DNA of 64,000 bases from Acidobacteriota bacterium (GTDB taxonomy: Bacteria; Acidobacteriota; Thermoanaerobaculia; Multivoradales; JAGPDF01). Location: positions 40,097 through 104,096 of the forward strand of contig JACTMI010000012.1 in the NCBI GenBank assembly GCA_014584695.1. Direction: 5' to 3'. The notes beneath the pieces are model-generated. The model searched no databases and was not told the DNA's origin. It saw only the letters and a list, made by a program, of their open reading frames with translations. Shown in pieces: positions 29,018 to 57,418 of this stretch (positions are counted from its first letter, which is position 1; each line of letters opens with the position of its first letter). Position numbers and translations under genes: made by a program.

Positions 29018-29030
29018 TAACAATGTTAAC
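29016..29030. promoter_or_regulatory. 15-bp palindromic operator GTTAACA-A-TGTTAAC overlapping the -10 and transcription start
   Basis: It has perfect 7-bp arms and overlaps the TATAGT box. This position is typical of TetR autorepression. Confidence 0.55.
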
Positions 29031-29046
29031 AAAGAGACCACCGTTC

Positions 29047-29679: not shown

Positions 29680-29682
29680 GGG

Positions 29683-30810: not shown

Positions 30811-30836
30811 TCCTTACAGCCCCGAGGTCTCGACCG

Positions 30837-31589
30837 ATGCCCACCGCCCTACCGCTCGCGCTCGCCCCACCGTCGCCCGCGGTCGCCTCGTCGCGGCCGG
30901 TCCTGCTCGCCGAGCGGGTCACCAAGAGCTTTCGCGACGGGCGCGAGGAGGTGCCGGTCCTCTCCGGCGTCGACCTCGCGCTCGCGCCCGGCGAGATCGT
31001 CGCGCTCGAGGGTCCGTCGGGCTCGGGCAAGACCACCTTGCTGTCGATCCTCGGCTGCATCCTGACCCCGACCTCCGGACGCGTGGTGGTCGACGGCGAG
31101 GAGGTCGATCCGCGGCGCCCGGGCCGGCTGCCCGAGATCCGCAAGCGCTCGCTCGGCTTCGTCTTCCAGCAGTACAACCTCTTCCCCGCGCTCAGCGCGC
31201 GCGAGAACGTCGAGTACGCACTCCAGGTCAAGGGCCAGCGCGGCGGCCGCGCGCGCGACGCCGCGGCGCGGTCGCTCGCGGCGGTCGGCCTGACCGACCG
31301 CGCCGATTTCCTGCCGCGCGACCTGTCGGGTGGCCAGAAGCAGCGGGTCGCCATCGCGCGCGCGATTGCCGCCGAGCCGCCGGTGCTGCTCGCCGACGAG
31401 CCGACGGCGAACCTCGACACGCGCGCCGGCGCCCAGGTGCTCGACCTCTTCCGCGACCTGGTGCGCGCGCGCGGGAGCGCGCTCGTGATCGTCACCCACG
31501 ACGCCAACGTCCGTCGCATCGCCGATCGCGTGATCGGCATCCGCGATGGCCGCATCGTCGCGCCCCCCCCTGCGGAGAACCCGACATGA
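30837..31589 (+). CDS. ABC transporter ATP-binding protein
   Basis: Walker A GPSGSGKTT, Q-loop FVFQQYNL, signature LSGGQKQRVAIARA, Walker B VLLADEPT and H-loop VTHD. Confidence 0.9.
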   Translation: MPTALPLALAPPSPAVASSRPVLLAERVTKSFRDGREEVPVLSGVDLALAPGEIVALEGPSGSGKTTLLSILGCILTPTSGRVVVDGEEVDPRRPGRLPEIRKRSLGFVFQQYNLFPALSARENVEYALQVKGQRGGRARDAAARSLAAVGLTDRADFLPRDLSGGQKQRVAIARAIAAEPPVLLADEPTANLDTRAGAQVLDLFRDLVRARGSALVIVTHDANVRRIADRVIGIRDGRIVAPPPAENPT

Positions 31590-32461
31590 AGATCCCGCGC
31601 CCCGCCCTCGTCTGGCCGCTCGCCGGCTTGGCGCTGCTCACTCTCAGCGTCGCCCTCGGTCGCGCGGCCGGCGGCTCCCAGCCCCCGGCTGTGGGTGGTC
31701 GCGCGCCCGCAGCGCCCGACCGGGTCGTCGCCGAAGGCCGGCTGGTCGCCTACCCGGGGGCCGAGATCACCCTCGCGGCCGAAGTCGCGGGCACGCTGGT
31801 CGAGCTGCCGGTCGAGGAGCGGCAGCGCCTGCGCCGCGGCCAGCTCGTGGCCCGCCTCCGCGCCGACGAGATCGCGGCCGAGCTCGCCGAAGCGACGGCG
31901 CGGCTGGCCGAGGTCGAGGCCGAGATCCGCTGGGCCGCGGGCGAGCTCGCCCGCTCGGAGAACCTGCTCGCCAAGCAGGTCGACACCGAGACCCGCCGCG
32001 ACCGCGCGCGGCGGGACCTCGACGTCGCCAGCGCGCGGCGGGACACCGCGACGGCGGCGATCGAGCGGCTCGGCGCCGAGCTCGCCAAGCGTCGGCTGGT
32101 GGCTCCGATCGACGGGGTGGTCGTCGTCCGCGCGGCCGATCCGGGCGAAACGGTGGAAGCGCGGGCGCCGATCGTGACCCTGGCCGATCTCGCCCGCGTC
32201 CGCATCGAAGCCGAGGTCGACGAGTTCGACGCCGGGCGCCTGCGCCTCGGCGCGCCGGTGGTGGTCACCGCCGACGGCTACCGCGGCGAGCGCTGGACCG
32301 GCACCGTCGAGGAGATTCCCGACGCGGTCGCCGGCCGCCGCTTGAAGCCGCAGGACCCGGGCCGCCCGTCCGACACCCGCGTCCTGCTGGTCAAGGTGCG
32401 GCTCGACGCGCCGACTCCGCTCAAGCTCGGCCAGCGCGTCGAGGTCGCGATCGGGGGATAG
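31586..32461 (+). CDS. Periplasmic adaptor (HlyD/MFP family) of the efflux system
   Basis: Its ATG overlaps the ATPase stop (ATGA). It has a signal or anchor MKIPRPALVWPLAGLALL, a coiled-coil hairpin (AELAEATARLAEVEAEIRWAAGELARSENLL), and a beta-barrel motif APIDGVVVVR. Confidence 0.85.
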   Translation: MKIPRPALVWPLAGLALLTLSVALGRAAGGSQPPAVGGRAPAAPDRVVAEGRLVAYPGAEITLAAEVAGTLVELPVEERQRLRRGQLVARLRADEIAAELAEATARLAEVEAEIRWAAGELARSENLLAKQVDTETRRDRARRDLDVASARRDTATAAIERLGAELAKRRLVAPIDGVVVVRAADPGETVEARAPIVTLADLARVRIEAEVDEFDAGRLRLGAPVVVTADGYRGERWTGTVEEIPDAVAGRRLKPQDPGRPSDTRVLLVKVRLDAPTPLKLGQRVEVAIGG

Positions 32462-32509: not shown

Positions 32510-33850
32510 CTAGCGGTGCCCCGTTTCGGACGCCGTCTCGCCCAGGCCGAGCTCGCGGCGCAGCACCGCGGCGAGCCAGGCGAGCTCGTCCGGGGTCCGC
32601 TCGCGCAGCAGGCCGCGCACCTCACCGCCGGCCAAGTGGAGCTCGAGCTGCAGGACGGGGCGGTTGTTGATCCGAACGCCGGTGGGGCCGACGGCGACGG
32701 CGCGCAGCCGGGAGAGGTCGAGCTCCTCCGCACGGCGCTGGCCCAGCGCCACCGACTCCCAGCGCAACTGTGGCGGCGCGACTGTCATCGTCGTCCGGCG
32801 GGTTCCGAGGCGGGCGCTGAAGTAGAGCATCGCGACGCCGATGGCGACGAAGAACAGAACGAACGGGATCGCCACGAGCGCCCCCTGGTCGTCATCGCGG
32901 CCGCCGCCGAGCGTGGCCGCGATGACCGCGACCGCGAAGGCGACGGAGATCGCGGCCCAGATCGCGCCCATGAGAAAGAGGCCGTGACTGCCGCGGAGGA
33001 GCCCCGGCGGTGGCACTTGGACGACCAGACCGCCGCCACCACGCTCGACCGTGATCGCGGTGCCGGGCGGGGGAGTCGCCGCGCGCTCGGCGTCGGCGGC
33101 GCGCTCGACCGCCGCGCGCTCGGCGGCGGCCGCCTCCGGCGTGGCCGTGGCGACGCCGGGCCGCGAAGCAGCGTCGCGCCGTTCGACCGCGGGAGCGTTG
33201 GCGAGCAGCCCGCCGCGCAGACCCGCGGCCGACGGAAACCGCTGCGCGAGGTCGCGCGCCACCGCATCGAGCTCGGCGGCTGGGTAACCGGTGGCGAGCG
33301 CCACGTGCCGGCCGCGGCCGGTCCAGGCCTCGAGGCGCGCCGGCGGCGGCGCCGCCTCGGCGTCGCGTGCGCGCGACCAGGCCTCGCCCTGGCCGGTGAG
33401 CGCGTCGACGATGCGCAGGACGACGACGTCGCCGGCGGCGAGCGATCGCGACCGGGAGAGGCCACCCACCCGCTCGCTGCCGGTGATCCGCCCGCGGGCG
33501 AGCCGGATCTCGCTGTGGCCGGCCAGGACGAAGAGCCCGAACCGGGCGATGCGCAGCGCCACCAGGAGCGCGAGCAGCCCGATCAGCACCGCCCCCGCGA
33601 GGACGATCGCTTCGAGCGGCACGCCGGACGAGGAGCTTTCCGGCGCGGCCTCGGCAGGCAGGGTGCTCGGCAGGAACCGGTCGGCGAAAGAAGCGACCTG
33701 TGAGATCACCGTGATCGCCAAGCCGAGCCCGACCGCGATCGGGATCCAGCCGAAGTGGCGGACGGCGCCGAGCTCGCGTGGCGCGAACAGGTAGCGTGCG
33801 CCCTCGGCCTCGGGCAGCACCTGGACTCTCGCCGTCAGGTACGCAGCCAT
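32510..33850 (-). CDS. Hypothetical membrane protein with an internal duplication (2 TM plus a soluble beta-rich module, twice)
   Basis: 446 aa with two TM hairpins: IPIAVGLGLAITVISQVA / AIVLAGAVLIGLLALLVALRI, and LFLMGAIWAAISVAFAVAVIAA / LVAIPFVLFFVAIGVAMLYF. Each hairpin is followed by a ~100-aa module ending in an (AA/PD)EL(D/A)xxAxxLxxxF/L helix. The layout resembles bacterial PH (YdbS/YdbT-like) topology; this is an inference. Confidence 0.55.
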   Translation of the reverse strand: MAAYLTARVQVLPEAEGARYLFAPRELGAVRHFGWIPIAVGLGLAITVISQVASFADRFLPSTLPAEAAPESSSSGVPLEAIVLAGAVLIGLLALLVALRIARFGLFVLAGHSEIRLARGRITGSERVGGLSRSRSLAAGDVVVLRIVDALTGQGEAWSRARDAEAAPPPARLEAWTGRGRHVALATGYPAAELDAVARDLAQRFPSAAGLRGGLLANAPAVERRDAASRPGVATATPEAAAAERAAVERAADAERAATPPPGTAITVERGGGGLVVQVPPPGLLRGSHGLFLMGAIWAAISVAFAVAVIAATLGGGRDDDQGALVAIPFVLFFVAIGVAMLYFSARLGTRRTTMTVAPPQLRWESVALGQRRAEELDLSRLRAVAVGPTGVRINNRPVLQLELHLAGGEVRGLLRERTPDELAWLAAVLRRELGLGETASETGHR

Positions 33851-33929: not shown

Positions 33930-36641
33930 TCAGGGCGCCGCGACCTCCTCGTCCCAGCGCGAGACGTCGCCGCTCTCGAAGCCGTCGGCGAACAGCAGAC
34001 CGGGGCCACAGGCGGTGGGGTGGAAGATCCGGACATCGTCGACGTACCAGCCGGTGTCGCCGATCGAGCCGTCGGCGCCGAAGCGCCAGCGCCAGCGTAG
34101 CGTCTGGCCGGCGAAGTCCTCGAGGTCGACCAGGACGCGGACGAAGCTCGCGATGTCGCCGTGCCAGGCCGGGCGCCCGGCGAGCGGGTTGGTGCCCGTG
34201 CCGTTGAGGGCGCCGGTGTAGCCGCCGGTCAGGAAACGGGCCGCATTGCCGGCGAGCACGTCCGACCACACCGCGCCGTCGGGCGAGCTCTCGAGCACGC
34301 CGCCGTCCCAGTTCGACTCGGTGTTGTAGCGATGCCAGAACTCGAGCCGCGCAGCGGTCGGAGCTCCGGGCAGCGCGACCCCGGCGGCCAGCGCGAGCCA
34401 GCGGTCCGAGGTGCTCGACGGATCGTTCGTGAACCAGGCGTGGCTGGGCGAGTGGCTGGCCGCGGCCGAGACCGCGAAGTTCGAGCCGGCGCCGGTACCG
34501 CCGACGACCCAGGCCGCGGCCGGCCCCTCGACGTCGTCGTGGAACAGATCGGCGTCCGGCCCGCCCGGAGCGGCGCTGCGCCGGACGACGTTCGCCTCCT
34601 CGTTGCCGGCGTCGCAGGGCCCGCCGCCGAAGCCGGTCTCGTCCTCGGCGCGCACGACGTAGTGGTAAGCGGTGCCGTGAACCGGTGTCGGATCCTGGTA
34701 GTGGGTCACGGCGAGGCAGCTCGCGAGCAGGTTCGCCGGCCCGGGCACGAAAGCCGGGTCGGTCGAGCGGTAGACGTTGTAGACCACGCCGCCGCCGCAG
34801 GAGGAGCTGCCCGCGCTCCAGGCGAGGTCGACGCCGCAGGCGCTCGCCCCGACCGACTGCGCCGAGGCGAGACCGGCGAACGCCGGGGCCAGCAGACAGA
34901 CGCCGGTGGTCGAGGCGTCGTCGCAGAGGCTGCGCGCCGACTCGCAGTCGTCGTCGTCCTCGTCGATGGCCGAGACGCGGTAGGCGTAGGTGACGCCGCC
35001 GGAGACCGCGGTGTCGCTGAAGCTGGTGGCCGCGGTCTCGACGAGTGGCGTCGCGCCGCTGCCGGGGCAGGCGCCGAGGGCGCGGTAGATCCGATAGCGC
35101 TCGGCGCCGGCGACGGCGTCCCAGGCGAGGTCGATCCGGTTGTCGCCGTTGGGCGTCGCGGAGAGGTTCTGCGGCACCGCGGGGGCGGTGCAGGCGTCGC
35201 GCCCGTCGACGGTGGTGGCGCCGGAGGCGAGCGGGTCGAGCCAGTCGGCGGCACGGGTGTCGGGCGTCGTGCCGCCGTCCCAGCTCCGATGGAGGAAGCC
35301 GTAGTAGTCGGAGAGCCGGTTGCCGACCTCGCCGCACGCCGAAGTGCCGCCGTGGAGCTGGCCGACGAAGCGCCGCTCGCGGTTGTAGACCGGCGAGCCC
35401 GACGAGCCCGGCTCGGTGACCTGGGGCGGGATCGGCGGCTGGATCGTCGGGTTGGGGGGAAAGACCGGATCCGGGTCCCACTTGACCCACAGGTGCGAGC
35501 CGTCGTTGCCCGGCGGCGGCACGGTGCCGCCACCGTAGACCGAGGGGACCATCGGGTCCTGCGAGAAGGTGATCCGCTTCTCGTCGACGCCTGGGTGGTG
35601 GATGCCGGCGCACAGGGAGCCCTCCGAGCAGAGGAAGCAGGGGACGCCCGCGCAGTCGCCGTCGCCGGCCGTGCGGTCCCAGCCCGCCCAGTGGAGGTTC
35701 CAGAGCGGGTCGACGGTGCCGAGGAACTCGATCAGCGTGAAGTCCGACGCCGAGCGGGCGGCGCGGAAGGTCCAGCCGCTCGCGAACTGGGTGCGCTGGC
35801 CGTCGCCGGCGCCGCCCGATGCGGCGCTGCCCGGAATCCGGCAGGAGGAGTTCTCGAAGTTCCAGTAGACGACCACGGTGGCGGCGTTGCCGGAGTTGAT
35901 GCCACAGTGATTGGCGGTCATGAACAGCACCCGGCGGTCCTCGGCGGTGTTGTTCAACAGCGAACCCGAGCAAGTGTCGATGCCGTTGCGGGTGATCGCC
36001 CCCGAGGCCCGCACGGTGGCGCGCCAGGGGTCGCTGGCGAGCAGACACTCGACGTCCATGTTGCAGGCGCCCGACTCGGGGGCTTCCGGCAACCCGAACC
36101 GGGTGTAGCCCTGCCCGACCTGGACCAGCTCGAGCTCGAGCTCACCCAGACGGTCGCGCGGGATCGTCACTTCGAGTATCGCGTCGCCGCCGGCGATGAG
36201 GGGCGTCCAGAGTTGGCCGCCCGCGGTGTTGTCCGCGGCGGTGAACGGGCGAACAAGCTCCGACAGGTCGGTGGCGTGGACCAGCAGCTGCCCCCCCGGC
36301 GGCATGCGGAAGCGGCCGAAGCCGAAGTTGAGCGAGGTCGCGTCCGCGGCGCGCACGCGCAGGCGCCAGAGCAGGCGGCCGTCGGCCAGGTCCTCCCAGG
36401 TGCCGCGCGCGGCGGGCGTGAGCGCGAGCGGCCGCGCCACGGCGAAGCGCAGCGGCAGCCCGGCCTCCTGGCGCGCGGCATCCTCGACCGCCAGCGCGGC
36501 CAGGTCGAGGGCTTCGAAGTCGAGCGTGTCGAGCGCTTCGATGTCGATCAGCGAGTGCAGCAGGGCGGTGGGAACGGGCGGCTCCTGCGCGAGCGCGACC
36601 GCCGCCGTGAGCGCGACGAGGAGAGCGAAACGGACTGTCAT
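33930..36641 (-). CDS. Exported lysyl endopeptidase-like S1 serine protease (Achromobacter protease I family) with FN3 and C-terminal beta-sandwich domains
   Basis: The signal peptide is MTVRFALLVALTAAVALAQ. The catalytic region closely parallels Achromobacter protease I as I recall it: CSGSLLNNTAEDRRVLFMTANHCGI, VVVYWNFENSSCR, SDFTLIEF, WAGWDR, TEPGSSGSPVY, GQLHGG and DWLDP. It is followed by FN3-like LSATPNGDNRIDLAWDAVAGAERYRIYR. The C-terminal tail is LLFADGFESGDVSRWDEEVAAP. Confidence 0.85.
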   Translation of the reverse strand: MTVRFALLVALTAAVALAQEPPVPTALLHSLIDIEALDTLDFEALDLAALAVEDAARQEAGLPLRFAVARPLALTPAARGTWEDLADGRLLWRLRVRAADATSLNFGFGRFRMPPGGQLLVHATDLSELVRPFTAADNTAGGQLWTPLIAGGDAILEVTIPRDRLGELELELVQVGQGYTRFGLPEAPESGACNMDVECLLASDPWRATVRASGAITRNGIDTCSGSLLNNTAEDRRVLFMTANHCGINSGNAATVVVYWNFENSSCRIPGSAASGGAGDGQRTQFASGWTFRAARSASDFTLIEFLGTVDPLWNLHWAGWDRTAGDGDCAGVPCFLCSEGSLCAGIHHPGVDEKRITFSQDPMVPSVYGGGTVPPPGNDGSHLWVKWDPDPVFPPNPTIQPPIPPQVTEPGSSGSPVYNRERRFVGQLHGGTSACGEVGNRLSDYYGFLHRSWDGGTTPDTRAADWLDPLASGATTVDGRDACTAPAVPQNLSATPNGDNRIDLAWDAVAGAERYRIYRALGACPGSGATPLVETAATSFSDTAVSGGVTYAYRVSAIDEDDDDCESARSLCDDASTTGVCLLAPAFAGLASAQSVGASACGVDLAWSAGSSSCGGGVVYNVYRSTDPAFVPGPANLLASCLAVTHYQDPTPVHGTAYHYVVRAEDETGFGGGPCDAGNEEANVVRRSAAPGGPDADLFHDDVEGPAAAWVVGGTGAGSNFAVSAAASHSPSHAWFTNDPSSTSDRWLALAAGVALPGAPTAARLEFWHRYNTESNWDGGVLESSPDGAVWSDVLAGNAARFLTGGYTGALNGTGTNPLAGRPAWHGDIASFVRVLVDLEDFAGQTLRWRWRFGADGSIGDTGWYVDDVRIFHPTACGPGLLFADGFESGDVSRWDEEVAAP

Positions 36642-40726: not shown

Positions 40727-43700
40727 ATGACGACGCTCCACCTAGAGCGCCGCCCGGGGACATCGGCCCGCTCGGGCCTCCGGACCCTGGCCGCGCTGGC
40801 GCTCGGGTTCACCGCCGCCGCCGCGCCGGCCCAGGTCGGCCCGCCCGTCGTGCCCGGGTTCCCGAACGTGCCCCAGACCGCGGGCGCGATCCTGTCCGGC
40901 CTCAACGCTCCGCAGCAGGGGCGGACCGCGATCCTCGCCTACCACAACGGCGTTCTGTTCACCGTGCCCGAGCTGCCGGCGAGCCAGCCGGGCTCGGACT
41001 TCCAGGTGCGCACCTGGAGCTTGGTCAACCCCGCCGCGCCGGTCGAGCTCGCGACCTGGGGAATCTCGCCGATGCCGATCAACGCCCACGGCTACTTCCA
41101 GAGCGGCGAGTACCTGATCCTGGGCAGCAACTGGCCCCCCGAGGCCCCCTGGTCGTTCCGCGCCCAGGGCGTCCACGGCCTCCAGCGCACCGAGTTCCCC
41201 GGCCTGCTCTGCGCGGGGGTGCGCGGCTGCCTGTTCCAGCCCTGGTTCGTCGGCGACACCTGGTGGAGCTACGGCGCGATCTCGGGTCTGGCGACGATCT
41301 CGCGCGGCAATTTCAACCCGATCGCGCAGTGGGACCATCTCGGTCTGACCGGCGTCGTCGGCCACCCCTTCCTGATCGGCGACCTGCTGATCTTCGCCTC
41401 GGATCAGAGCCGCACCGGGGTGGCCACCTACGACGTCTCGAATCCCGCCCAGCCGGTCCTGCTCGACGTGCTAACCACCGGCGGACCGGGCGGCTACTGG
41501 CCCGAGATCTGGGGCGGCGACGGCAAGCTCTACGTCGTCTTCCCCTATCGCGAGAACGGCAACGGCATGCGCGTGGTCGACGCCACCGACCCGTCCAACC
41601 TCGCCCTCGTCGCCGACGTTTCGCTGCCCGGCGACGAGGCGATGTACGCGCAGTTCCAGGACGAGTACGCCTTCATCGGCAGCCACAAAGTCGACCTGCG
41701 CACCTTCCAGTCGGTGCTCAACCTGAACGGCGCGACCACCGTACGCCCCAACGACGGCGGCGTCGGCATCGACACCAGCCAGTTCGCGCTGCCGCTCGGC
41801 AACCTGCTGGTCACCGGCGGCGTCGGGCCGCACCAGGGGATGGCGATCTGGGCCCACCAGGCCGAGCCCGACACGCGCGGGCCCTCGGTCGGCTTCCACA
41901 TCCCCCAGGCCGGGCGGACCCATTACCCGGTCGGGGCGCCGATCACGCTGCTGATCCACGAGACGCTCGAGACCTTCACCATCGTCAACGGCGAAACCTT
42001 CATCGTCCGGCCGCTCGGCGGCGCGCCGATCGCCGGCCGGCTCACCTTCGCCTTCGACGACGTGCTCACCTTCACGCCCAACCAGCCGCTCGCGCCGGAC
42101 ACCACCTACGAGGTCGTGATCCCCGCCGGCGGGATCAAGGACGCGGCCGGCAACGGCATCGCCGGCACCGCCTGGACCTTCTCGACCGGGGGCAGCGTCG
42201 GCGGCAACGCGGCCCCGGCGGTGAATCTGTTCGACGCCGGCCCTTACCCGGCGGCCCCCGGGGAGTCGGTCACTTTCACGGCCGCGGCCACCGACCCCGA
42301 GGGGCAGCCGCTCGAGTATCGGTTCGATTTCGGCGACGGCAGCCCCAAGACCGCCTGGAGCGCGGCGAGCGGGGCGGCTCGCGCCTACGCCGCCTCCGGC
42401 CACTACCGCGCCACCGTCCAGGTGCGCGATCCGGCCGGCGCCATCGCCTCGCGCAGCCGGACGGTGACCGTGGTCGTCCCCCCGGCCGCGGCGCGCCCGA
42501 CGCAGAGCGCGCAGGTCGTCTGCGACGCCGCCGCGCGCACGGTCTGGACGGTCAACCGCGACGCCGGCACGGTGGCGCGCGTCGACGTCGACACGCTCGC
42601 GGTGGACTTCGAAGTGCCGGCCTGCGCCGACCCGCGCGCCGTCGCTCTCGCCGCGACCGGCGAGCTGTGGGTCGCCTGCGCCGGCGACGACCGGCTGCGC
42701 GTCCTCGACGGCACCACCGGGGCGCCGCTCGCCTCGATCTCGACCGGCTACGGCTCGGCGCCGGTGGGCGTCGCCGCCTCGCCCTCCGGGGCGACGCTCT
42801 ACGTCACCCTCTCCGGGCCGGGCGAGCTGCGGCGCTTCGACGCCGCCTCGCGCGCGCAGACCGGCGTCGTCGCCGTCGGGCCCTGGCCGCGCGCCATCGC
42901 CGTCACCCCGGACGGCGCGCGCATCCTGGTCACCCGCTTCCTCTCACCCCGCGACTGGGCCGAGGTCTACGAAGTGGCCGCCGGGCCCTTCACCCTGACC
43001 CGCACCTTCCGGCTGCACAAGCTGGGCGGCGACGCCAACCGCGACACGACCGCGGCCGGGCGCGGCACGCCGAACTTCCTGGCCGACATTGCGGTCTCAC
43101 CCGACGGCTCGCAGGCCTGGGTGGCGGCGACCAAGCCGAACGTCGAGCGGGGGCTGCTGATCGGGCCCGACCTCGACTCCGACAACACCGTCCGCTCGAC
43201 GCTGGTGGCGCTCGACCTGACCACCAACCAGGTCGGCGACACGATCGACGTCGACAACAGCGACTCGCCCGCGGCGCTCGCCTATTCGCCGCTCGGTGAC
43301 TACCTCTTCGTCGCCCTGCAGGGCAACGACCAGCTGGTGGTGCTCGACGCCCTCGCCTTCGGCACCAGCACCGGGCTGGGCGCGCAGGTGACGCGCCTCG
43401 CCACCGGCGCGGCGCCGCAGGGCATCTGCGCCGACGCCGTGACCCATCGACTCTTCAGCGCCGACTTCCTCGGCCGAACGCTGACCGCGATCGAGGCGGC
43501 GCCGCTCTTTCTCGCCGGCGAGAAGAACCTCGCCGCCACGGCGATCGCCACCCAGGCGGTCGAGCCGTTGCCGCCGACGGTGCTCGCCGGCAAGCGGATC
43601 TTCTACTTCGCCTCGGATCCGCGGATGAGCCCGGAGGGCTACCTCTCCTGCGCCACCTGCCACGTCGACGGCGGCACCGACGGCCGCGTCTGGGACTTCA

Positions 43701-44860
43701 CCGGCCGCGGCGAGGGGTTGCGCCGCACGGCTTCGCTGCAGGGCCGCGGCGGCATGGCGCAGGGCAACGTCCACTGGAGCGGCAACTTCGACGAGATCCA
43801 GGACTTCGAGAACGACATCCGCTTCGCCTTCGGCGGCACCGGCTTCATGGCCGAGAGCGATTTCGTCGCCACCGAACACCCGCTGGGCCCCCCCAAGGCC
43901 GGTCTCTCGGCGGCGCTCGACGCGCTCGCCGACTACGTCACTTCGCTGGTCGCGAGCTTCCTGCCGCGCAGCCCGCATCGCCAGAGCGACGGCGCGATGA
44001 CGGCGCAGGCGGTCGCCGGCCGGGCGCACTTCGTCGCGCTCGGCTGCGGCTCCTGCCACGCGCCTCCCGGCTTCACCGACTCGACGGTGGGCGCGGCGAC
44101 CCTGCACGACGTCGGCACCCTCCGCTCGACTTCGGGCGGGCGGCTGGGCGGACCGCTGCCGGGCATCGACACGCCGACGCTCGCCGGGTCGTGGGCGGCG
44201 GCGCCGTACTTCCACGACGGCTCGGCGGCGACGCTCGAGGAGGTCTTCCGCGTCGCCGGCGGCGAGGTCGTTCCGGCCGAGAGCGGCACGCCCTCGTTCG
44301 GCGCCCAGATCGTCGCCCAGTACGTCGATCTCAACAACGACGACACCGTGCGCGGCCGCGCCTACGTCGAGCTCGACCAGACCGGCGAGCGGGTGACCTT
44401 CTCGGGCGTCGACGGCGGCGCGGGTGGCACCGGCGCCTTCGAGCTGCGCTACAGCAGCGGCAACGGCGCGACTCCGATCGAGGTGCGGGTCAACGGCGTC
44501 GTCCACAGCGCCTCGCTGCCTTCGGCGCAGAACTCGACCTCGTGGTGGCACCGCAACTGGCGCCAGGCGCGCCTCGAGGGGATCACCTGGAACGCCGGCG
44601 CGGCCAACACGGTCGAGGTGCGCGTGACCGGTCAGTTCCCCAGCCTGTCGCTCGACGAGGTGCTGGTTTCGACCGCCGACGATCTGGCGGCCGCGGCCCC
44701 CCACCGCGCCGCCCTCGCGCTCACGCCCACCCAGCGCAGCGAGCTGATCGCCTTCCTGCGCCAGCTCGACGGCACCCCCGGCGAGCATCCCGACGCCCCC
44801 CTGTTCGCCGACGGCTTCGAGAGCGGTGACTCGGGCGCCTGGTCGGTGCAGGTGCCCTGA
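40727..44860 (+). CDS. 1377-aa exported multidomain protein: LVIVD-like propeller, Ig-like, PKD, YVTN-type beta-propeller, di-haem cytochrome c peroxidase (CCP/MauG-like), and a CBM-like domain
   Basis: The signal peptide is ...LRTLAALALGFTAAAAPAQ. LVIVD-like repeats include MRVVDATDPSNLALVADV. The PKD domain is YRFDFGDGSPKTAW...GHYRATVQVRDPAG. Propeller repeats include LYVTLSGPGELRRFD and ILVTRF. The haem sites are CATCH (nt 43649-43663) and CGSCH (nt 44045-44059), with the CCP-like APYFHDGSAATLEEV. The C-terminal tail is LFADGFESGDSGAWSVQVP. Confidence 0.85.
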   Translation: MTTLHLERRPGTSARSGLRTLAALALGFTAAAAPAQVGPPVVPGFPNVPQTAGAILSGLNAPQQGRTAILAYHNGVLFTVPELPASQPGSDFQVRTWSLVNPAAPVELATWGISPMPINAHGYFQSGEYLILGSNWPPEAPWSFRAQGVHGLQRTEFPGLLCAGVRGCLFQPWFVGDTWWSYGAISGLATISRGNFNPIAQWDHLGLTGVVGHPFLIGDLLIFASDQSRTGVATYDVSNPAQPVLLDVLTTGGPGGYWPEIWGGDGKLYVVFPYRENGNGMRVVDATDPSNLALVADVSLPGDEAMYAQFQDEYAFIGSHKVDLRTFQSVLNLNGATTVRPNDGGVGIDTSQFALPLGNLLVTGGVGPHQGMAIWAHQAEPDTRGPSVGFHIPQAGRTHYPVGAPITLLIHETLETFTIVNGETFIVRPLGGAPIAGRLTFAFDDVLTFTPNQPLAPDTTYEVVIPAGGIKDAAGNGIAGTAWTFSTGGSVGGNAAPAVNLFDAGPYPAAPGESVTFTAAATDPEGQPLEYRFDFGDGSPKTAWSAASGAARAYAASGHYRATVQVRDPAGAIASRSRTVTVVVPPAAARPTQSAQVVCDAAARTVWTVNRDAGTVARVDVDTLAVDFEVPACADPRAVALAATGELWVACAGDDRLRVLDGTTGAPLASISTGYGSAPVGVAASPSGATLYVTLSGPGELRRFDAASRAQTGVVAVGPWPRAIAVTPDGARILVTRFLSPRDWAEVYEVAAGPFTLTRTFRLHKLGGDANRDTTAAGRGTPNFLADIAVSPDGSQAWVAATKPNVERGLLIGPDLDSDNTVRSTLVALDLTTNQVGDTIDVDNSDSPAALAYSPLGDYLFVALQGNDQLVVLDALAFGTSTGLGAQVTRLATGAAPQGICADAVTHRLFSADFLGRTLTAIEAAPLFLAGEKNLAATAIATQAVEPLPPTVLAGKRIFYFASDPRMSPEGYLSCATCHVDGGTDGRVWDFTGRGEGLRRTASLQGRGGMAQGNVHWSGNFDEIQDFENDIRFAFGGTGFMAESDFVATEHPLGPPKAGLSAALDALADYVTSLVASFLPRSPHRQSDGAMTAQAVAGRAHFVALGCGSCHAPPGFTDSTVGAATLHDVGTLRSTSGGRLGGPLPGIDTPTLAGSWAAAPYFHDGSAATLEEVFRVAGGEVVPAESGTPSFGAQIVAQYVDLNNDDTVRGRAYVELDQTGERVTFSGVDGGAGGTGAFELRYSSGNGATPIEVRVNGVVHSASLPSAQNSTSWWHRNWRQARLEGITWNAGAANTVEVRVTGQFPSLSLDEVLVSTADDLAAAAPHRAALALTPTQRSELIAFLRQLDGTPGEHPDAPLFADGFESGDSGAWSVQVP

Positions 44861-47831: not shown

Positions 47832-48470
47832 ATGGAGTCATCGACGCCGCCGCGACGCACCAGGGCAGGGTGGACGATCCGAGGTGCGGGAGCGCTGGCG
47901 CTGGTCGCGGCCCTCGGCGGCGCCGCGCCGCCGGCCGGGGCGACGGCGTCGCAGCTCGACCTCGAGATCGAGGCGGCGCTCGCCGAGCTGCCGCCCGAGC
48001 GTTGGGCCGAGACGATCCGCTTCCTCCTGGAGGCCCACCTCGGCACCCCGGGCGTTCACGCCGTCTCGCCGGGAAGCCTCTGGGACCGCGACGCGGCCTT
48101 GGACGAGCAGGCCTTTCCGGTGAGCCAGGGCTGCTTCCTGTCGGATGGAGGCTTCGGCGGCTGCGCCTACGCGCCGCTCCGATTCCGGCAGGGGTCGACG
48201 GTCACCGGACTCGTGATGCTCTTCGTCGACAACTGGAATGGCGAGGACTATCTGGTCGAGGTCCGCCGCAAGCGGACCGGGACCAACGACGCCTCGCAGG
48301 TCATGGCCTCGGCGGCGTCGAGCGGAGCCAGCCCGAGCCACCGGATCGCCACGGACCTGACCATCGACCACGCCCTGATCGACAACAGCCTCTACGCCTA
48401 CTTCGTCCGGCTCTGTCGCCCCTTCTTCGGCTCCCAGCTGCACGGCCTCTACCTGACCTACAGCCAGTGA
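47832..48470 (+). CDS. Exported hypothetical protein carrying one copy of an unrecognised ~120-aa domain
   Basis: The ATG is preceded by GGAGGGAG. The N-terminus PPRRTRAGWTIRGAGALALVAALGGAAPPAGA is signal-like, possibly Tat-like. The C-terminal domain GCFLSDGG...LRFRQGSTVTGLVMLFVDN...YLVEVRRKR...SSGASP...IDNSLYAYFVRL...LHGLYLTY is paralogous to both halves of the next gene. Confidence 0.6.
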   Translation: MESSTPPRRTRAGWTIRGAGALALVAALGGAAPPAGATASQLDLEIEAALAELPPERWAETIRFLLEAHLGTPGVHAVSPGSLWDRDAALDEQAFPVSQGCFLSDGGFGGCAYAPLRFRQGSTVTGLVMLFVDNWNGEDYLVEVRRKRTGTNDASQVMASAASSGASPSHRIATDLTIDHALIDNSLYAYFVRLCRPFFGSQLHGLYLTYSQ

Positions 48471-48481
48471 TCGAGAACCCC

Positions 48482-49467
48482 ATGCCCCGTCGTCTGGCCC
48501 TGCTTGCCACCCTCTCCCTGTTCGTGGCGTTCGGTTCCACTCCGCTCGCCGGCGAGCAGCTCGTCGTCGGCGCCGCGGACTTCCACTCGCGGATCCCGGA
48601 GGGTCACGTCTTCGACTCCGTCGCCGGCTGGATCGGAGGCGCCCTCACTACCGGCGGCGGCTGCCTGGTGGCGAGCGCCCCCCTGCCCCACCGCGCCCAG
48701 GTGAAGCAGCTGATCCTCCAAGTCTACGACAACCACGCGGCGCAGGATTTCCGCATCGAGCTCAAGCGGAAGCGGCGTGGCAACTCGGTGGTCGCCCAGA
48801 CGCTCGCCGGCGCCTCGACCTCGGGGGCGACGACCGCGGCGAGGGAGATCAACGTCGTGCTGCCCGACGGCGGCCATCTCGTCAGCGACGCCTTCGTCTA
48901 CTACCTCTCGACCGACGCGGACTGCCTCGATGGCACCAGCCATCGCATCCATGCGGTTCGGATCGACTACGTGCTACCGCTCTTCGCGGACGACTTCGAG
49001 TCCGGCGACACCTCGGCCTGGGGCGCGCCGCCCCAGACCCTGCACCACTACTGGGTGTCGGGCATCGACTTCAAGAACCTCCAGGGCTGGCCGTGGACGA
49101 TCGACACGACACTCGCCACCTTCTGGCTCGAAAACGCCATCAACTCGCCAGCGCCTTGCGCTCTGGCGCGCCTCGAGCTGCCGCACGGAGCGACCGTCGG
49201 CGGCATCCTCGCCAACCTGTGGGACGTGCGCAGCGACCGCAACCTGACGCTGAGTCTGCGCCGTTCGACGATGGCGAGCGCGGTGGTGCCCGCGGTTCTG
49301 ACCAGCGTGTCGACCTCCGGTCAGAACGGCTGGCAGCTCCAACTGAGCTTCACCGTCGCCAACGCGGTGATCGACAACGACACCTACTGGTACTGGCTCG
49401 ACGCCTGCATCACGGGTGGCAACCAGGTCGAATCGGCGCAGCTCGGTGTTCAGGCGGTGCAGGTCTT

Positions 49468-49483
<16 letters not shown>
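48482..49483 (+). CDS. Exported hypothetical protein with two copies of the same unrecognised domain, joined by an LFADDFESGDTSAW linker
   Basis: The signal peptide is MPRRLALLATLSLFVAFGSTPLAG. Copy 1 is GGCLVASAPLPHRAQVKQLILQVYDN...FRIELKRKR...STSGATT...SDAFVYYLS...IHAVRIDYV. Copy 2 is PCALARLELPHGATVGGILANLWDV...LTLSLRRST...STSGQNG...DNDTYWYWLD...VQAVQVFYS. Its 3' end overlaps the convergent kinase gene by 16 nt. Confidence 0.65.
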
Positions 49484-52199
<2,716 letters not shown>

Positions 52200-52203
<4 letters not shown>

Positions 52204-54788: not shown

Positions 54789-54976
54789 CTCCTGAGGACC
54801 GGTTCCATCTTAGGCGAGCCGAGGGGCCCGGGCTTGAGGGGGTCAACCGCGCAGGGGCTGGAGCTGTTGCGCGGCTCGGTTCCGGTGCGATGAGGGTGAC
54901 GCCGGCGATGGTCCTTTCCGCAGGGTGTATCGTGGCGACGAGACCCGTTCAGCCGGAGTCCGCCGCCCGTCAGGCC

Positions 54977-55004
54977 GAGAAGAGGAAGAAGAGGAAGAGG
55001 AAAG
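54977..55004 (+). repeat. 28-nt uninterrupted polypurine tract
   Basis: gagaagaggaagaagaggaagaggaaag contains only purines on the + strand. It lies about 24 nt upstream of the probable ATG (55028) of the island gene and is highly unusual in this GC-rich context. Confidence 0.9.
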
Positions 55005-55027
55005 TGGCGAGTATCCATACTTCGCCG

Positions 55028-57346
55028 ATGAGACAGCCCATCGCTGTTTCGACAATGGTGGCGTCTTCTCGACGAATTCCCGCCAGTGCCAGATCACGGT
55101 CGGCCGCAGCGGCGCCGCCGAAGGCCGCTGAATTCTCCGCGGTGGCGCTGGCGCTGACCCTGGTTTCGCCGGTCTGCGCGCAGCACTTCGCCACGGGCGC
55201 GATGGAGCAGGTCCCTGACGACGAGCGAAGTGGCTCTGTCGAGGTGGTGGCGTACGCCCCCTCGCCCATCGCCACTCGCCTGAGTCTGGACGGTGCAGTT
55301 GGAGTGCGGTCGATGCGTCTCGCAGCCGCCGCCGTGGAAGGCGAAAGGCAGCGCTACTCGCTCGAGTTTCGCAGTCTCGGTGTTCGGTACCTCAGAGCCG
55401 AGACCCCTGCGGAGCAAGGTCTGGAATTGCCGGCAGTACCGATCCGAGGTCGCGTGCTCCTGCCCCCGATCCCACGCGCGACCGCTTCGGTCGTCGAGCT
55501 TGCTTTCGACGAAGCGTGGCTCGGGGTCGGGGGTAACGGAATCCTCGCATCGTCTCTGGCTCGGGAAGGCGGGGACTCGTGTCGACCAGGTTGGTCGACC
55601 CTGCCGGTCTGGCACACGTTTTCGCTTCGTCCGACGGTCAGGATCGAGAGGGTGCCAGCCGCCCTCGAGCTGTGGTTCTTTCATCCAGCAACGGGAGCCA
55701 TCCGCCTCGGGCCGAATTTCGCGCTGCCCTCGGTCGATCCTCGACCGGCCACGATCCAAAGAGACTTCCAGCTCGTCTCGAGCGAACCAACCGAGAGCCT
55801 CCAAGGGGTGGTCACTTGGGGGAAACAGCGCGTTCCCATCGCCAGGGTGGGCGCTTCCGGTCGCTTCAGCGTGGTGGGGCCACCGGGCCCCTGGGAGCTT
55901 TCCGTCTTCACTTTCGATGGCAACGAGGTCTCGTGGACCACGAACGTAACCGAAGCCGCTCTCGACATCGTGACCGTCCCCCTCCCGGGGCGCGCTCGCC
56001 TTGCTGGCCAGCTTCTGACACCAGCGGGCGAGCCCGTGGGCGGGGCTTTGATCTGGAGAGCGGGTGAAGCCAACTGGCAAGTCGTGACGCGGCGAGATGG
56101 TTCCTTTGGACTGCGCGATCTGCCCACCCAGCGGTCGCTTCGCCTCTGCATCCAGCTCGAAAGCGGCCAGCTCTTCTCGCAGGAAGCAGAAGGCCTGCCG
56201 GCGGGTGTGAGCTCGCTTCAGATCGTGGTGCCGACCGAAGCGGCGACGCCGGCCCCGGAGCTGGCCTCGGTCTCCGGCCGAGCCGTCAACGAATCCGGAG
56301 AGCCTCTTTCGGGCATCAAACTCCGACTGGTGCGCGATCAGGGCTCCAGAGAAGTGATTCGAGCCATGGTGCGCCCGCGCTCCGGCTCCGCGTTGGCGAA
56401 CGCGACCAGTGATGTCTTGGGGGTCTTCGAGCTCTCGAGCGCACTGGAACCGGGACGCTACAGGGTCGTCGCTGATAGCTCTGATTACGCGCCGACGAGC
56501 TCGGAGCCGATCGAGATCTTTGCCCCGGGCGATCGTGTCGACCTCGGAGATCTCGTGCTGAAGCACGGGGCGGTAGTGCGTGGCAAGGTCTTGACGGCAC
56601 GAGGCGAACCGAGCCCAGGCATGAAAGTGACCGTTGCGGTCGGCGTCGACGGTGCCTGGCTCCAGCTGGCTTCGCATGCGATCACGTCGGAGCGAGGTGA
56701 GTTCGAGATCGACGGCATTCCGGAGAGCGTGGCGCTGGAGGTCAGGGCTGAGCGGGACGGAGGAGAGGCGGTCGCGAAGCGGCTATCCGAGACAGATGAT
56801 CCTCTAAACCTCACTCTCGTCCTGGGCCCCAGCAGATCGATCGCAGTGGTGGCGTGGGACTCGGACGGCTTGCCGGTCGAGGGCGCCGACGTCAGCTTGC
56901 GCTCGCCGACGGGGCGGGCGCGCGACGCGGCTCTTCCTGGGAGAATTTGGCGTGGCACGACCGACCCATCTGGAACGACTCGTCTGGAGGGTGTGGATTG
57001 CGGCCCGCAGAATCTGATCGCCGATGCCAAGGGGTTTCTGAGGTTCGCCGCGGAGCTTCCCGCATCGGAATGCTCCTCGAAAGCGAGCTCGCCCGTGATC
57101 GTCACGCTCGCACGTGGGGTGGAGATCTCGGGCCGCGTCTTGGCAGCTGACGGCTCGGCAGTGCCAGGCGCATGGGTGATGCTGGATGGAACCGGCGTGA
57201 CGACCGATCCGGCTGGCTGGTATCGGCTCCGTTGCGCCACTGGTGAGCTGGTTCGGCTGCGCTACAGCGACAATGGACGGGACTGGATCGCGATCGAGCT
57301 TGCGGTCGGCATGGAAGACGTGCGGCGGGACCTGATTCTGCCTTAG
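55028..57346 (+). CDS. Exported protein built from multiple carboxypeptidase-regulatory-like (CarboxypepD_reg) beta-sandwich domains, on a lower-GC island
   Basis: Recurrent modules are LAGQLLTPAGEPVGGALIW, VSGRAVNESGEPLSGIKLRLV, VRGKVLTARGEPSPGMKVTV and ISGRVLAADGSAVPGAWVML. The signal-like region is AEFSAVALALTLVSPVCAQ. The start is uncertain (ATG at 55028 or 55055); the track start at 54890 would translate the polypurine tract as KRKKRKRK. Confidence 0.7.
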   Translation: MRQPIAVSTMVASSRRIPASARSRSAAAAPPKAAEFSAVALALTLVSPVCAQHFATGAMEQVPDDERSGSVEVVAYAPSPIATRLSLDGAVGVRSMRLAAAAVEGERQRYSLEFRSLGVRYLRAETPAEQGLELPAVPIRGRVLLPPIPRATASVVELAFDEAWLGVGGNGILASSLAREGGDSCRPGWSTLPVWHTFSLRPTVRIERVPAALELWFFHPATGAIRLGPNFALPSVDPRPATIQRDFQLVSSEPTESLQGVVTWGKQRVPIARVGASGRFSVVGPPGPWELSVFTFDGNEVSWTTNVTEAALDIVTVPLPGRARLAGQLLTPAGEPVGGALIWRAGEANWQVVTRRDGSFGLRDLPTQRSLRLCIQLESGQLFSQEAEGLPAGVSSLQIVVPTEAATPAPELASVSGRAVNESGEPLSGIKLRLVRDQGSREVIRAMVRPRSGSALANATSDVLGVFELSSALEPGRYRVVADSSDYAPTSSEPIEIFAPGDRVDLGDLVLKHGAVVRGKVLTARGEPSPGMKVTVAVGVDGAWLQLASHAITSERGEFEIDGIPESVALEVRAERDGGEAVAKRLSETDDPLNLTLVLGPSRSIAVVAWDSDGLPVEGADVSLRSPTGRARDAALPGRIWRGTTDPSGTTRLEGVDCGPQNLIADAKGFLRFAAELPASECSSKASSPVIVTLARGVEISGRVLAADGSAVPGAWVMLDGTGVTTDPAGWYRLRCATGELVRLRYSDNGRDWIAIELAVGMEDVRRDLILP

Positions 57347-57418
57347 CCGCATCGGTCCGCGCGGCGTCGGGGCGGGCCGATCCTTCCGGCCCTCGGGCGA
57401 GCTAAGCTCGGGGTGCCG

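Follow-up and report, generated by a model that had tools for sequence, protein, structure and literature searches.

The 64-kb stretch of DNA analysed here (the window) harbours five genes whose products share a short peptide motif, [LY][FY][AS]D[GD]FESG[DG]xxxW, at the C-terminus in four cases and as an interdomain linker in the fifth. Protein A (25138–28728, plus strand; 1196 aa) is composed of a signal peptide, two beta-helix/NosD-like regions, DUF11 and the tag LYSDDFESGDTTEWDAVAAPLP, located at 28660–28725 on the plus strand; the protein ends in GGLYSDDFESGDTTEWDAVAAPLP, and a 1196-aa gene call for it is found in L128. Protein B (33930–36641, minus strand; 903 aa) combines a signal peptide, a lysyl-endopeptidase-type serine protease, two Fn3 domains and an InhA-like MAM domain with the tag LLFADGFESGDVSRWDEEVAAP at 33933–33998 on the minus strand, its last residues being GLLFADGFESGDVSRWDEEVAAP. 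Protein C (40727–44860, plus strand; 1377 aa), for which the gene call was confirmed in public contigs, carries a signal peptide, Big_5 and PKD domains, a YVTN/LVIVD beta-propeller, a di-haem CCP/MauG-like peroxidase, a CBM6-like domain and the tag LFADGFESGDSGAWSVQVP at 44801–44857 on the plus strand; it terminates in APLFADGFESGDSGAWSVQVP, followed by the stop codon at 44858–44860. Protein E (59849–61426, minus strand; 525 aa) has a signal peptide, seven FG-GAP repeats and the tag ALFADGFESGGVGNWND at 59852–59902 on the minus strand, with GALFADGFESGGVGNWND as its end. The library representative P0042 (525 aa; profile match at residues 495–525) is taken to be protein E, by its length alone. 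The internal copy is found in protein D (48482–49483, plus strand; 333 aa), which consists of a signal peptide, jelly roll 1 (residues 25–164), the motif, and jelly roll 2 (residues 188–331). The motif LFADDFESGDTSAW occupies residues 167–180 between the two jelly rolls (48980–49021, plus strand; context LPLFADDFESGDTSAWGAPP).

A sequence-only reading of this DNA had placed five copies at these positions, and coordinates as well as reading frames were confirmed for all of them. Its description of an N-terminal signal peptide on each protein also stands, the peptides being clear by eye in all five, and the unrelated domain content that it reported is borne out by domain searches, which gave different architectures for A, B, C, D and E. 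The invariant Trp, said to lie 2–8 residues before the stop, was found 8, 7, 5 and 2 residues from it in A, B, C and E. Counted from the D of D[GD]FESG, the stop follows within 13–19 residues in the four terminal copies, all on unrelated signal-peptide proteins. Chance occurrence of five copies had been considered unlikely, and the numbers agree. In a six-frame translation of the window (72.7% GC) the loose core [DNE][GDNSEA]FE[STGAND]G would be expected 0.076 times, D[GD]FESG 0.0025 times and the complete pattern 2e-8 times, while 30 mononucleotide shuffles gave on average 0.07 loose-core matches against 5 in the real window. At the DNA level the copies resemble each other only in the motif codons, and these differ synonymously (Ser TCC/AGC, Ala GCC/GCG, Gly GGC/GGT). 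This indicates selection on the peptide, and a DNA repeat or terminator artefact was ruled out for the same reason.

The distribution of the tag beyond the window was analyzed by scanning GTDB species genomes with degenerate codons for in-frame FADGFE[ST]GD. This yielded 127 sites, 113 of which (89%) lie at most 35 aa from a stop codon. The length of the tail shows a clear mode at 18 aa, with 57 tails ending exactly there (FADGFESGDTSAWSxxVP and stop). Of the 113 terminal tails, 67 end in Pro and 10 in Trp. The Trp is followed by 0 to ~15, mostly polar, residues, and the tag is usually preceded by two to six small or flexible ones. Five positions of the tag (F, D, F, E and W) vary little or not at all, and its conserved residues include three acidic and three aromatic ones. 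Terminal copies were found at 105 loci, which belong mostly to Thermoanaerobaculia and other Acidobacteriota MAGs. A profile search against 1.84 billion representatives returned 1559 matches at E ≤ 1e-3; among the best 150 of these, the motif was terminal in 53 of the 62 single-copy ones. Furthermore, 20 more terminal tags were found in 0.757 Mb of DNA flanking the seed matches (~26 per Mb), and single MAGs showed three to six tags in the sampled 8-kb pieces. Tandem double tags with a spacing of 20–25 aa were seen as well (P0014-16, P0021 and others).

The carriers of these tails are highly diverse and of a kind that acts outside the cytoplasm. Single-linkage clustering divided 104 tagged proteins into 52 clusters, and 78 Pfam families are represented in their last 430 aa, among which S8, FG-GAP, MAM, beta-helix, BNR, CarboxypepD_reg, PKD and M14. 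Signal peptides, called by a strict home-made heuristic, were found on 41 of 84 tagged proteins (49%), on 27 of 133 untagged coding ORFs (20%) and in 3 of 368 shadow frames (1%), an enrichment on tagged proteins with a Fisher p of 2e-5; an earlier heuristic (69% vs 49%) was dropped as too permissive. The proposed C-terminal enrichment on unrelated, signal-peptide-enriched proteins was thus recovered in the GTDB scan. The broader proposal of a C-terminal tag holds in part: the motif is strongly terminal on unrelated exported proteins, but it is internal in other phyla and in the protein D family (see below).

The family of protein B, gathered independently of the motif, showed that the tail is under constraint. 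In 91 homologues F888 is invariant and F884 and G887 are at least 90% conserved. The AlphaFold model of B (mean pLDDT 88.8) has a pLDDT of about 50 and no secondary structure at residues 881–903, and the tag is unpacked both against the MAM domain of B and against either jelly roll of D. The tail is therefore predicted to be conserved yet unstructured. That it might be a last beta-strand, an alternative raised in the sequence-only reading, is argued against by a tail left unpacked on the preceding domain in the models. In the 120 top-ranking homologues of B, the position after a conserved Cys is taken by one of five alternatives, namely the long tag, a short IFA[DN]GFE tail running directly into the stop, a domain of ~110 aa, FG-GAP repeats or SLH domains. 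The short tail is present in homologues from Tahibacter, Dokdonella and Pseudomarimonas; inspection of the Tahibacter amnicola locus added nothing further on the tag. Three SLH domains are located at the tag position in the B orthologues P0256, P0263, P0264 and P0267.

The internal copy of protein D is not a decayed tag. In the D family (27 proteins) the motif is the most conserved segment, which indicates that it can work without a free C-terminus. In the model of D, the fold of which resembles tandem CBM22, the motif has a pLDDT of 53–76 with no strand assigned, the lowest in the two-domain body and comparable only to the signal-peptide region. A further internal copy is found in L064. These internal copies, together with the variable number of residues after the Trp, indicate that the motif does not depend on a free carboxyl end at a set distance. 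In Actinobacteria- and Chloroflexi-type proteins the motif is internal and provides strand one of a jelly-roll domain that is ~190 aa long and repeated, so the sequence is not unique to C-termini. Indeed, the N-terminal strand of ConA-like jelly rolls (PF14099 Polysacc_lyase, PF02018 CBM_4_9 and NF033675 NTTRR-F1) has the same sequence, Phi-F-x-D-G-F-E-x-G-x-x-x-x-W. The motif aligns with profile positions 1-2 of PF14099 and PF02018 and with positions 4-22 of NF033675, in all cases below the curated cut-offs. In these jelly rolls ~170 more residues follow the motif, whereas in the window and its relatives they are absent and a stop codon is found instead. An HMM of the domain body detected no such body in the window; it matched only where the motif is internal (at no locus labelled Thermoanaerobaculia), and in addition one complete domain in L067. 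No significant match among PDB sequences was obtained, either with a jelly-roll domain or with the tail profile as the query.

The tail had not been recognised as a named domain, and neither Pfam nor NCBIfam gave a match for it, in the whole proteins or as isolated tails. Named sorting models (PEP-CTERM, IPTL-CTERM, MYXO-CTERM, GlyGly-CTERM, Por_Secre_tail and others) did not match seven tail peptides at E ≤ 10. As a positive control, the tail of a cytochrome encoded in the window matched TIGR04174 IPTL_CTERM over positions 1-27 of 27 with 19.5 bits, against a cut-off of 20.5 bits. Literature string searches on the motif returned irrelevant papers only, and the tail is undescribed among the papers searched.

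Eight attributes of C-terminal sorting signals have been listed (Haft, bioRxiv 10.1101/2023.06.07.544157, section 5), of which the tag shares numbers 1, 2, 3, 6, 7 and 8 and lacks numbers 4 and 5. It sits at the extreme C-terminus (attribute 1: 113 of 127 sites, four of the five window copies), it occurs many times per genome (attribute 2: four terminal copies in 64 kb and ~26 extra per Mb of flanking DNA) and it has invariant signature residues, also within the B and D families (attribute 3). An N-terminal signal peptide, expected on most members under attribute 6, is seen by eye on all five window proteins and was called by the heuristic on 49% of tagged against 20% of untagged proteins. Many pairs of proteins share only the signal (attribute 7: 52 clusters among 104 proteins, 78 Pfam families), and homologues exist in which the signal is exchanged (attribute 8: B orthologues carrying other C-terminal modules). 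A hydrophobic transmembrane segment after the motif (attribute 4) is lacking, as is a terminal basic cluster (attribute 5): the 113 tails contain no hydrophobic run and no Arg/Lys cluster, and Pro is the last residue in 67. The dissimilarity to PEP-CTERM, IPTL and LPXTG signals noted earlier, based on the lack of a transmembrane helix and a basic cluster, thus applies to the whole set.

A comparison with known systems places the tag apart from each of them. The signals of PEP-CTERM/exosortase, IPTL-CTERM, MYXO-CTERM/myxosortase, GlyGly-CTERM/rhombosortase and LPXTG/sortase have in common with it a terminal site, many copies, invariant residues and unrelated carriers with signal peptides. These tripartite signals, however, have a transmembrane segment and an Arg/Lys cluster; the tag has neither and matches none of the HMMs, and an intramembrane sorting protease therefore cannot be its reader. 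The C-terminal domain (CTD) of the T9SS (Por_Secre_tail, TIGR04183/PF18962) is likewise a C-terminal, non-membrane element on diverse Sec-exported proteases, adhesins and glycosidases. The T9SS CTD is a folded beta-sandwich of 70–100 aa that occurs in Bacteroidota, whereas the present tail, found mainly in Acidobacteriota, matches no model and is predicted to lack structure; with 13–30 aa it is, as was claimed, far too short for a T9SS C-terminal domain. Dockerins (in dockerin-cohesin systems) and SLH domains also are modular C-terminal appendages on diverse exoenzymes, occasionally in tandem. Both are folded modules, dockerins of ~60–70 aa with two Ca2+ loops and SLH domains of ~55 aa each, whereas the tag is a peptide of ~18 aa. 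The chaperone-usher donor strand and SpyTag/SpyCatcher share with it the concept of a beta-sandwich strand that acts as a free peptide to complete the fold of a partner; this is pure analogy, and the tag differs in having neither isopeptide chemistry nor a pilin fold. The tails do not resemble the beta-signal of outer-membrane proteins, a terminal aromatic residue on a beta-barrel: only 10 of the 113 end in Trp, and the carriers are soluble multidomain proteins. Type I secretion of the RTX type, the substrates of which have no Sec signal peptide and carry their signal within roughly the last 50 aa, behind Gly-rich repeats, does not fit either: the carriers have signal peptides, and the Pfam results contain no RTX repeats.

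Clustering of neighbouring genes (120 loci, 8-kb pieces) gave no candidate for a sorting enzyme or other partner. Only a Ser/Thr kinase-TPR family (16 loci) and an ECF sigma factor family (7 loci) recurred beside tagged genes, which by a rough estimate, with an assumed number of paralogues, is about what chance would give for such abundant paralogue families. A 446-aa membrane protein encoded just downstream of B (32510–33850, minus strand) was rejected as a partner; it has no Pfam match and is absent beside the orthologue P0157. A receptor jelly roll deficient in one strand was searched for with the domain-body HMM in 0.9 Mb of related DNA, in which complete domains only were detected.

The tail qualifies well as a candidate sorting or tethering tag of a new type, with a presumed role in export, processing or attachment. 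We tentatively favour the explanation that it is an exposed linear motif that is read in trans and sorts or tethers exported proteins, to which we assign a probability of roughly 0.45. The motif, with the consensus spacer-[I/L/V]-F-A-D-G-F-E-S-G-D-x-x-x-W-S-x-x-V-P-COOH and a minimal core Phi-F-x-[D/N]-G-F-E, would directly follow the final folded domain of proteins exported by Sec and would not fold onto its carrier. A putative shared partner in the cell envelope would read it in trans, and this reading would sort the protein, which would be held at, or handed on to, the cell surface or the outer-membrane compartment. In function the tag may thus be likened to the T9SS CTD, dockerin or SLH, unlike a membrane-anchored tripartite signal. 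Because its sequence reproduces the opening beta-strand or hairpin of ConA-like jelly rolls, beta-strand augmentation or complementation on the partner appears the most likely mode of recognition, in which the two Phe and the Trp would serve as hydrophobic anchors; Asp/Glu/Asp of the tag possibly bind Ca2+. The tandem double tags suit avidity or a docking ligand. Tandem duplication, however, is not expected for a pure translocation signal, and that a free carboxyl end at a fixed distance is not needed is unusual for secretion signals; both speak against sorting in trans. A more elaborate version can be formulated, in which the tag would be the address label of a new envelope pathway, used by Thermoanaerobaculia and allied Acidobacteriota for some 100 cargo proteins per genome; Xanthomonadales-like gammaproteobacteria would carry a short form of the tag. 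It would then be the first short, hydrophilic C-terminal signal without a transmembrane segment on Sec-exported proteins of diderms, and a receptor or translocon would capture the peptide by completing a jelly roll, a natural split-domain tag-and-catcher. We regard this version as conceivable but doubtful.

The tail might instead act in cis, as a generic capping strand or rigid linker for the last domain without a partner in trans, the terminal copies being linkers with nothing after them. That the same sequence is the first jelly-roll strand in other phyla and an interdomain linker in protein D, and that small or flexible residues usually precede it, is in agreement with such a role. Nevertheless, a peptide that comes after members of 78 or more Pfam families cannot belong to the fold of all of them as an integral strand, and the AlphaFold models show no packing on the MAM domain of B or the jelly rolls of D. 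A passive linker, moreover, is not as a rule the best-conserved part of a protein family, nor does it have a preferred end length or a preferred terminal Pro, and we consider a role purely in cis unlikely. The likeness to jelly-roll domains elsewhere, which begin with the motif, would also be explained if the tails were functionless stumps of C-terminal jelly rolls that have been lost. This was already very unlikely, given that the same residues are kept in more than 100 independent carriers and across 91 orthologues of B, that an 18-aa length and a terminal Pro are preferred, and that synonymous codon variation shows purifying selection on the peptide.

A site that is conserved, C-terminal and predicted to be exposed and unstructured could also be one that is recognised or cut by a periplasmic or extracellular protease, either as a C-terminal degron or in a maturation of the pro-peptide kind. 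Proteases are numerous among the carriers (S8, M14, lysyl endopeptidase), and the copy in D lies between two paralogous domains, where cleavage would release two single-domain proteins. We judge such a processing or turnover signal improbable, since neighbour clustering linked no protease gene consistently to the tag, tandem double tags have no obvious role in cleavage, and tail-specific proteases recognise non-polar tails while the present tail is acidic and aromatic. Quite improbable, too, is direct binding of a ligand, by which the D/E/D and F/F/W residues would bind Ca2+, the surface of a mineral or a glycan (LPS or EPS) and stick exoproteins to the envelope or matrix without a protein receptor. 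The three conserved acidic and three aromatic residues, the resemblance to the N-terminus of CBM_4_9 and polysaccharide-lyase-type jelly rolls, the avidity that tandem copies would add and the SLH domains found in place of the tag in orthologues are all compatible with it. In CBMs, however, these 13–18 residues constitute a framework strand only and not the binding site, and independent binding finds no support in any solved structure or family model.

The Thermoanaerobaculia and related Acidobacteriota are abundant bacteria of which hardly any have been cultured, and their biology is known from genomes alone. A large part of their exoproteome seems to bear the tag, with proteases, haem enzymes, glycan-binding proteins and repeat proteins of an adhesin-like type among the carriers. 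Should the peptide prove to be no more than a cap or linker, it would still be useful as a very common marker of domain boundaries. If the preferred explanation of a sorting or tethering tag is correct, an HMM would let annotators flag surface and secreted cargo, and phylogenetic profiling could point to the unknown reader or secretion component. A natural peptide of ~18 aa that docks by strand complementation would in addition be of interest for protein engineering. As a sorting or tethering tag, it would join the tripartite transmembrane type and the folded T9SS CTD as a third architecture among the C-terminal sorting signals of bacteria.

The pattern [LY][FY][AS]D[GD]FESG[DG]xxxW is present in five in-frame copies in the translations of the window (72.7% GC), at the positions reported in the sequence-only reading. 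Four copies end a protein: the β-helix protein (A), the lysyl-endopeptidase-type protease with a MAM domain (B), the propeller/peroxidase protein (C) and the FG-GAP protein (E), with 8, 7, 5 and 2 residues from Trp to stop, respectively, as in the 2-8 residues noticed earlier. The fifth lies inside D, a 333-aa tandem jelly-roll protein (48482-49483, + strand). Five copies had been judged unlikely by chance; six-frame translation of the window is expected to give 0.076 matches to a loose six-residue core and 2e-8 to the full pattern, and shuffled window sequence gave 0.07 matches. Each of the five begins with an obvious signal peptide, and their domain content is mutually unrelated, as had been claimed. 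In DNA alignments of the copies, identity is confined to the motif codons, with synonymous differences, indicating that the repeat is maintained at the peptide level.

The motif signature is real and widespread. A scan of one genome per GTDB species with a degenerate back-translation of FADGFE[ST]GD matched at least 120 loci. Among the matches listed, 113 of 127 in-frame sites (89%) lie at most 35 residues from the stop and 57 exactly 18 residues from it; the 18-residue tails have the consensus [ILV]-FADGFESGD-(T)(S)(A)-W-S-x-x-V-P-stop, and Pro is the final residue in 67 of the 113 terminal tails listed. A profile of the five window tails, run against 1.84 billion representative proteins, retrieved 1559 at E<=1e-3, and in the best 150 of these, 53 of 62 single-copy matches are terminal. 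Terminal copies were found in 105 loci among the matches listed, of which 87 are labelled Thermoanaerobaculia (including Multivoradales and Sulfomarinibacteraceae), 'Holophagae' or unclassified Acidobacteriota, 12 unclassified bacteria and 6 other phyla (Polyangiaceae, 'Deltaproteobacteria', Kangiella, Gemmatimonadota), proportions that depend on scan order, with other phyla interspersed through a list not sorted by taxon. Another 20 terminal tags with variant spellings were found in the 0.757 Mb flanking seed hits (~26 per Mb). Taken with the window's 4 in 64 kb, this density points to a number of the order of 100 tagged proteins in each genome, an extrapolation that clustering may inflate.

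After removal of the tail, the 104 complete tagged proteins among the matches listed formed 52 single-linkage clusters. Their last 430 residues matched 78 Pfam families, among which subtilases, FG-GAP, InhA-like MAM, beta-helix, BNR, CarboxypepD_reg, LVIVD, LamG, PKD, M14, PA and GSDH, the same kind of cargo as that of PEP-CTERM or T9SS signals. With a strict, home-made signal-peptide test, 49% of tagged proteins were positive; for untagged coding ORFs the rate was 20% and for shadow frames 1% (p = 2e-5). P0019 of the representative library appears to be a read-through fusion, in which a tagged protein (...IFQDGFESGDLSNWSSTMP) runs into what resembles the signal peptide of the next gene; a second tag ends the product.

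That the motif is no named domain held up against Pfam and NCBIfam: no model matched the tail region, in whole proteins or isolated tails, even at E<=10. As a control, the C-terminus of a multihaem c-type cytochrome-like protein (62498-64000, - strand, continuing beyond the window end; weak match to NF040886, ExtKL-like) was compared. It ends in ...GGTPFEIPAAGAAGLAALALALGAFGLARLRRRRRPTAGA, a classical TM-plus-Arg-cluster sorting tail, and covered all 27 positions of IPTL-CTERM (TIGR04174) at 19.5 bits, just below the 20.5-bit cut-off. The method is thus able to see short sorting domains, and this tail indicates that the genome uses a tripartite sorting system as well. The motif strings had no relevant context in the literature searched and a PDB search returned no matching solved structure; the motif is not described in the libraries searched. 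C-terminal sorting signals have been defined by eight attributes (bioRxiv 10.1101/2023.06.07.544157, section 5). The tag has attributes 1, 2, 3, 6, 7 and 8 and lacks 4 (TM helix) and 5 (basic cluster), in agreement with the sequence-only reading, so that it does not belong with the tripartite signals, and a reader of the intramembrane sortase type is ruled out. Membership comparison also rejected a T9SS CTD, OMP beta-signal, T1SS signal or dockerin.

What follows the conserved MAM-terminal Cys in the 120 best homologues of B is the long tag, a short tail, a ~110-aa domain, an FG-GAP/VCBS domain or SLH domains. SLH is an accepted cell-surface anchoring module. The homologues with other C-terminal modules provide the eighth attribute (bioRxiv 10.1101/2023.06.07.544157). 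Short tails stop at or just after GFE, within 5 residues of it (IFANGFE, IFADGFEG, IFANGFEP, each followed by the stop), and these variants reduce the core to Phi-F-x-[D/N]-G-F-E. They occur in P0167-P0257 and others, gammaproteobacterial orthologues including cultured Tahibacter aquaticus, T. amnicola and Pseudomarimonas species, plus a Dokdonella MAG. The last residues of the unannotated ~110-aa domain, (I/V)DVNGYFE before the stop (P0176, P0186, P0188, P0189, P0204, P0209, P0244 and others), resemble the short tag (xDGFE), possibly by coincidence. Two tandem tags, 20-25 residues apart, end small secreted proteins of about 130-215 aa (P0014, P0015, P0016, P0021, P0034, P0038, P0061, P0070 and P0136; e.g. 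...IFNDGFETGDTSAWASSVPDRIFADGFESGDVSRWGAP).

The AlphaFold model of B (91-sequence alignment) has a mean pLDDT of 88.8. The last strand of its MAM domain spans residues 862-875, and residues 881-903 have a pLDDT of about 50 and no secondary structure; in the family, F888 never varies, and conservation is >=90% at F884 and G887. D is predicted to fold as two jelly rolls (residues 25-164 and 188-331), with a CBM22-CBM22 tandem as best PDB match. The motif (residues 167-180) is the linker between them; its pLDDT of 53-76 is the lowest in the two-domain body, with comparably low values only in the signal-peptide region. Among 27 D homologues, which keep the two-domain architecture, it is the most conserved segment, down to 25% identity. 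A segment so conserved yet not predicted to pack, seen in two unrelated contexts, is in these models the signature expected of a linear motif read in trans. The unannotated jelly-roll domain (about 140 aa, CBM22-like fold) occurs in three tandem copies, one in a 212-aa protein without the motif (47832-48470, +) and two in D, with the motif as joint.

The top-scoring representatives carry 2-6 internal copies, 190-295 residues apart, the last usually about 185-205 residues from the protein end; their matching genome loci are labelled Actinomycetota, Chloroflexota, Dormiibacterota and similar. Here a domain of about 190 aa is repeated, with the motif as its N-terminal strand; the domain has weak matches to PF14099 (Polysacc_lyase) and PF02018 (CBM_4_9), starting at profile positions 1-2. 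A double tag matches positions 4-22 of NF033675 (NTTRR-F1). An HMM of the domain body matched only internal-motif loci (labels other than Thermoanaerobaculia) and one complete domain in a further locus (L067), and found no body in the window. Since the motif heads a jelly roll elsewhere and the body is missing here, the tag appears to be what opens a ConA-like jelly roll, its first strand or hairpin, used alone.

No partner of the tag was found; neighbour clustering over at least 120 loci returned kinase and ECF-sigma families only. In the window a Ser/Thr kinase with TPR repeats (49468-52200) and an ECF sigma factor (PF07638; 52200-52784) are paired on the - strand. They recur in 16 and 7, respectively, of 120 related loci (at least 120 matched), by rough estimate about the rate expected of abundant paralogues. 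A 446-aa protein (32510-33850, -) is encoded just downstream of B in the same orientation, at a distance of about 80 bp by gene calls; it shows several hydrophobic, TM-like segments by eye and had no Pfam match. It was rejected as partner, being absent beside the B orthologue P0157 (locus L126). Between A and B a run of four genes (29023-32461, +) encodes a TetR regulator, a MacB/FtsX-type ABC permease, an ABC ATPase and an HlyD-family adaptor, and has the appearance of an operon for MacAB-like efflux or export. The Pfam check covered the TetR and HlyD genes, and the other two names come from precomputed Pfam matches on an identical contig. An 818-aa CarboxypepD_reg-repeat protein (54890-57346) is followed downstream by a T2SSE-family (PF00437) secretion or pilus ATPase (57413-58756, +), which is located about 1.1 kb from the gene for E; further genes of a secretion system were not seen near it. 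From the translation, 14825-19895 (+) would encode a heavy-metal P-type ATPase (CcoI-like) and then an apparent fused cbb3-type oxidase CcoN-CcoO protein.

The tail may be an exposed linear motif on exported proteins that a shared envelope partner would bind, probably by beta-strand augmentation mimicking the role of the motif in jelly rolls, with sorting or tethering at the cell surface as outcome. As the neighbours are limited to kinase and ECF-sigma families, with no partner among them, and the 446-aa membrane protein next to B is not conserved, this function is one we infer, at a probability of roughly 45%. A linker or cap acting in cis, the position of the motif in D, is unlikely next to the predicted lack of packing in both B and D. 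A processing or degradation site is less probable again; it would suit the unstructured tail of B and the copy between the two domains of D. Direct binding of Ca2+ or a glycan, which the CBM-like matches of the jelly rolls bring to mind, is slightly more doubtful still for a tail used without the domain body. A functionless relic of such a domain is very improbable for a repeat maintained at the peptide level.

For the envelope-partner reading, a docking ligand accounts for the double tags in tandem (P0014-16, P0021) and for the conserved linker in D better than a signal for translocation only would. The endings after Trp differ by lineage and in length, WSxxVP in some MAGs and a stop at W in others, which is compatible with a lineage-specific reader. 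The hedged sorting-tag proposal stands in part: the motif has the character of a C-terminal tag for sorting or docking whose architecture is new, with a putative role, and in other phyla the same sequence is a strand of a domain.
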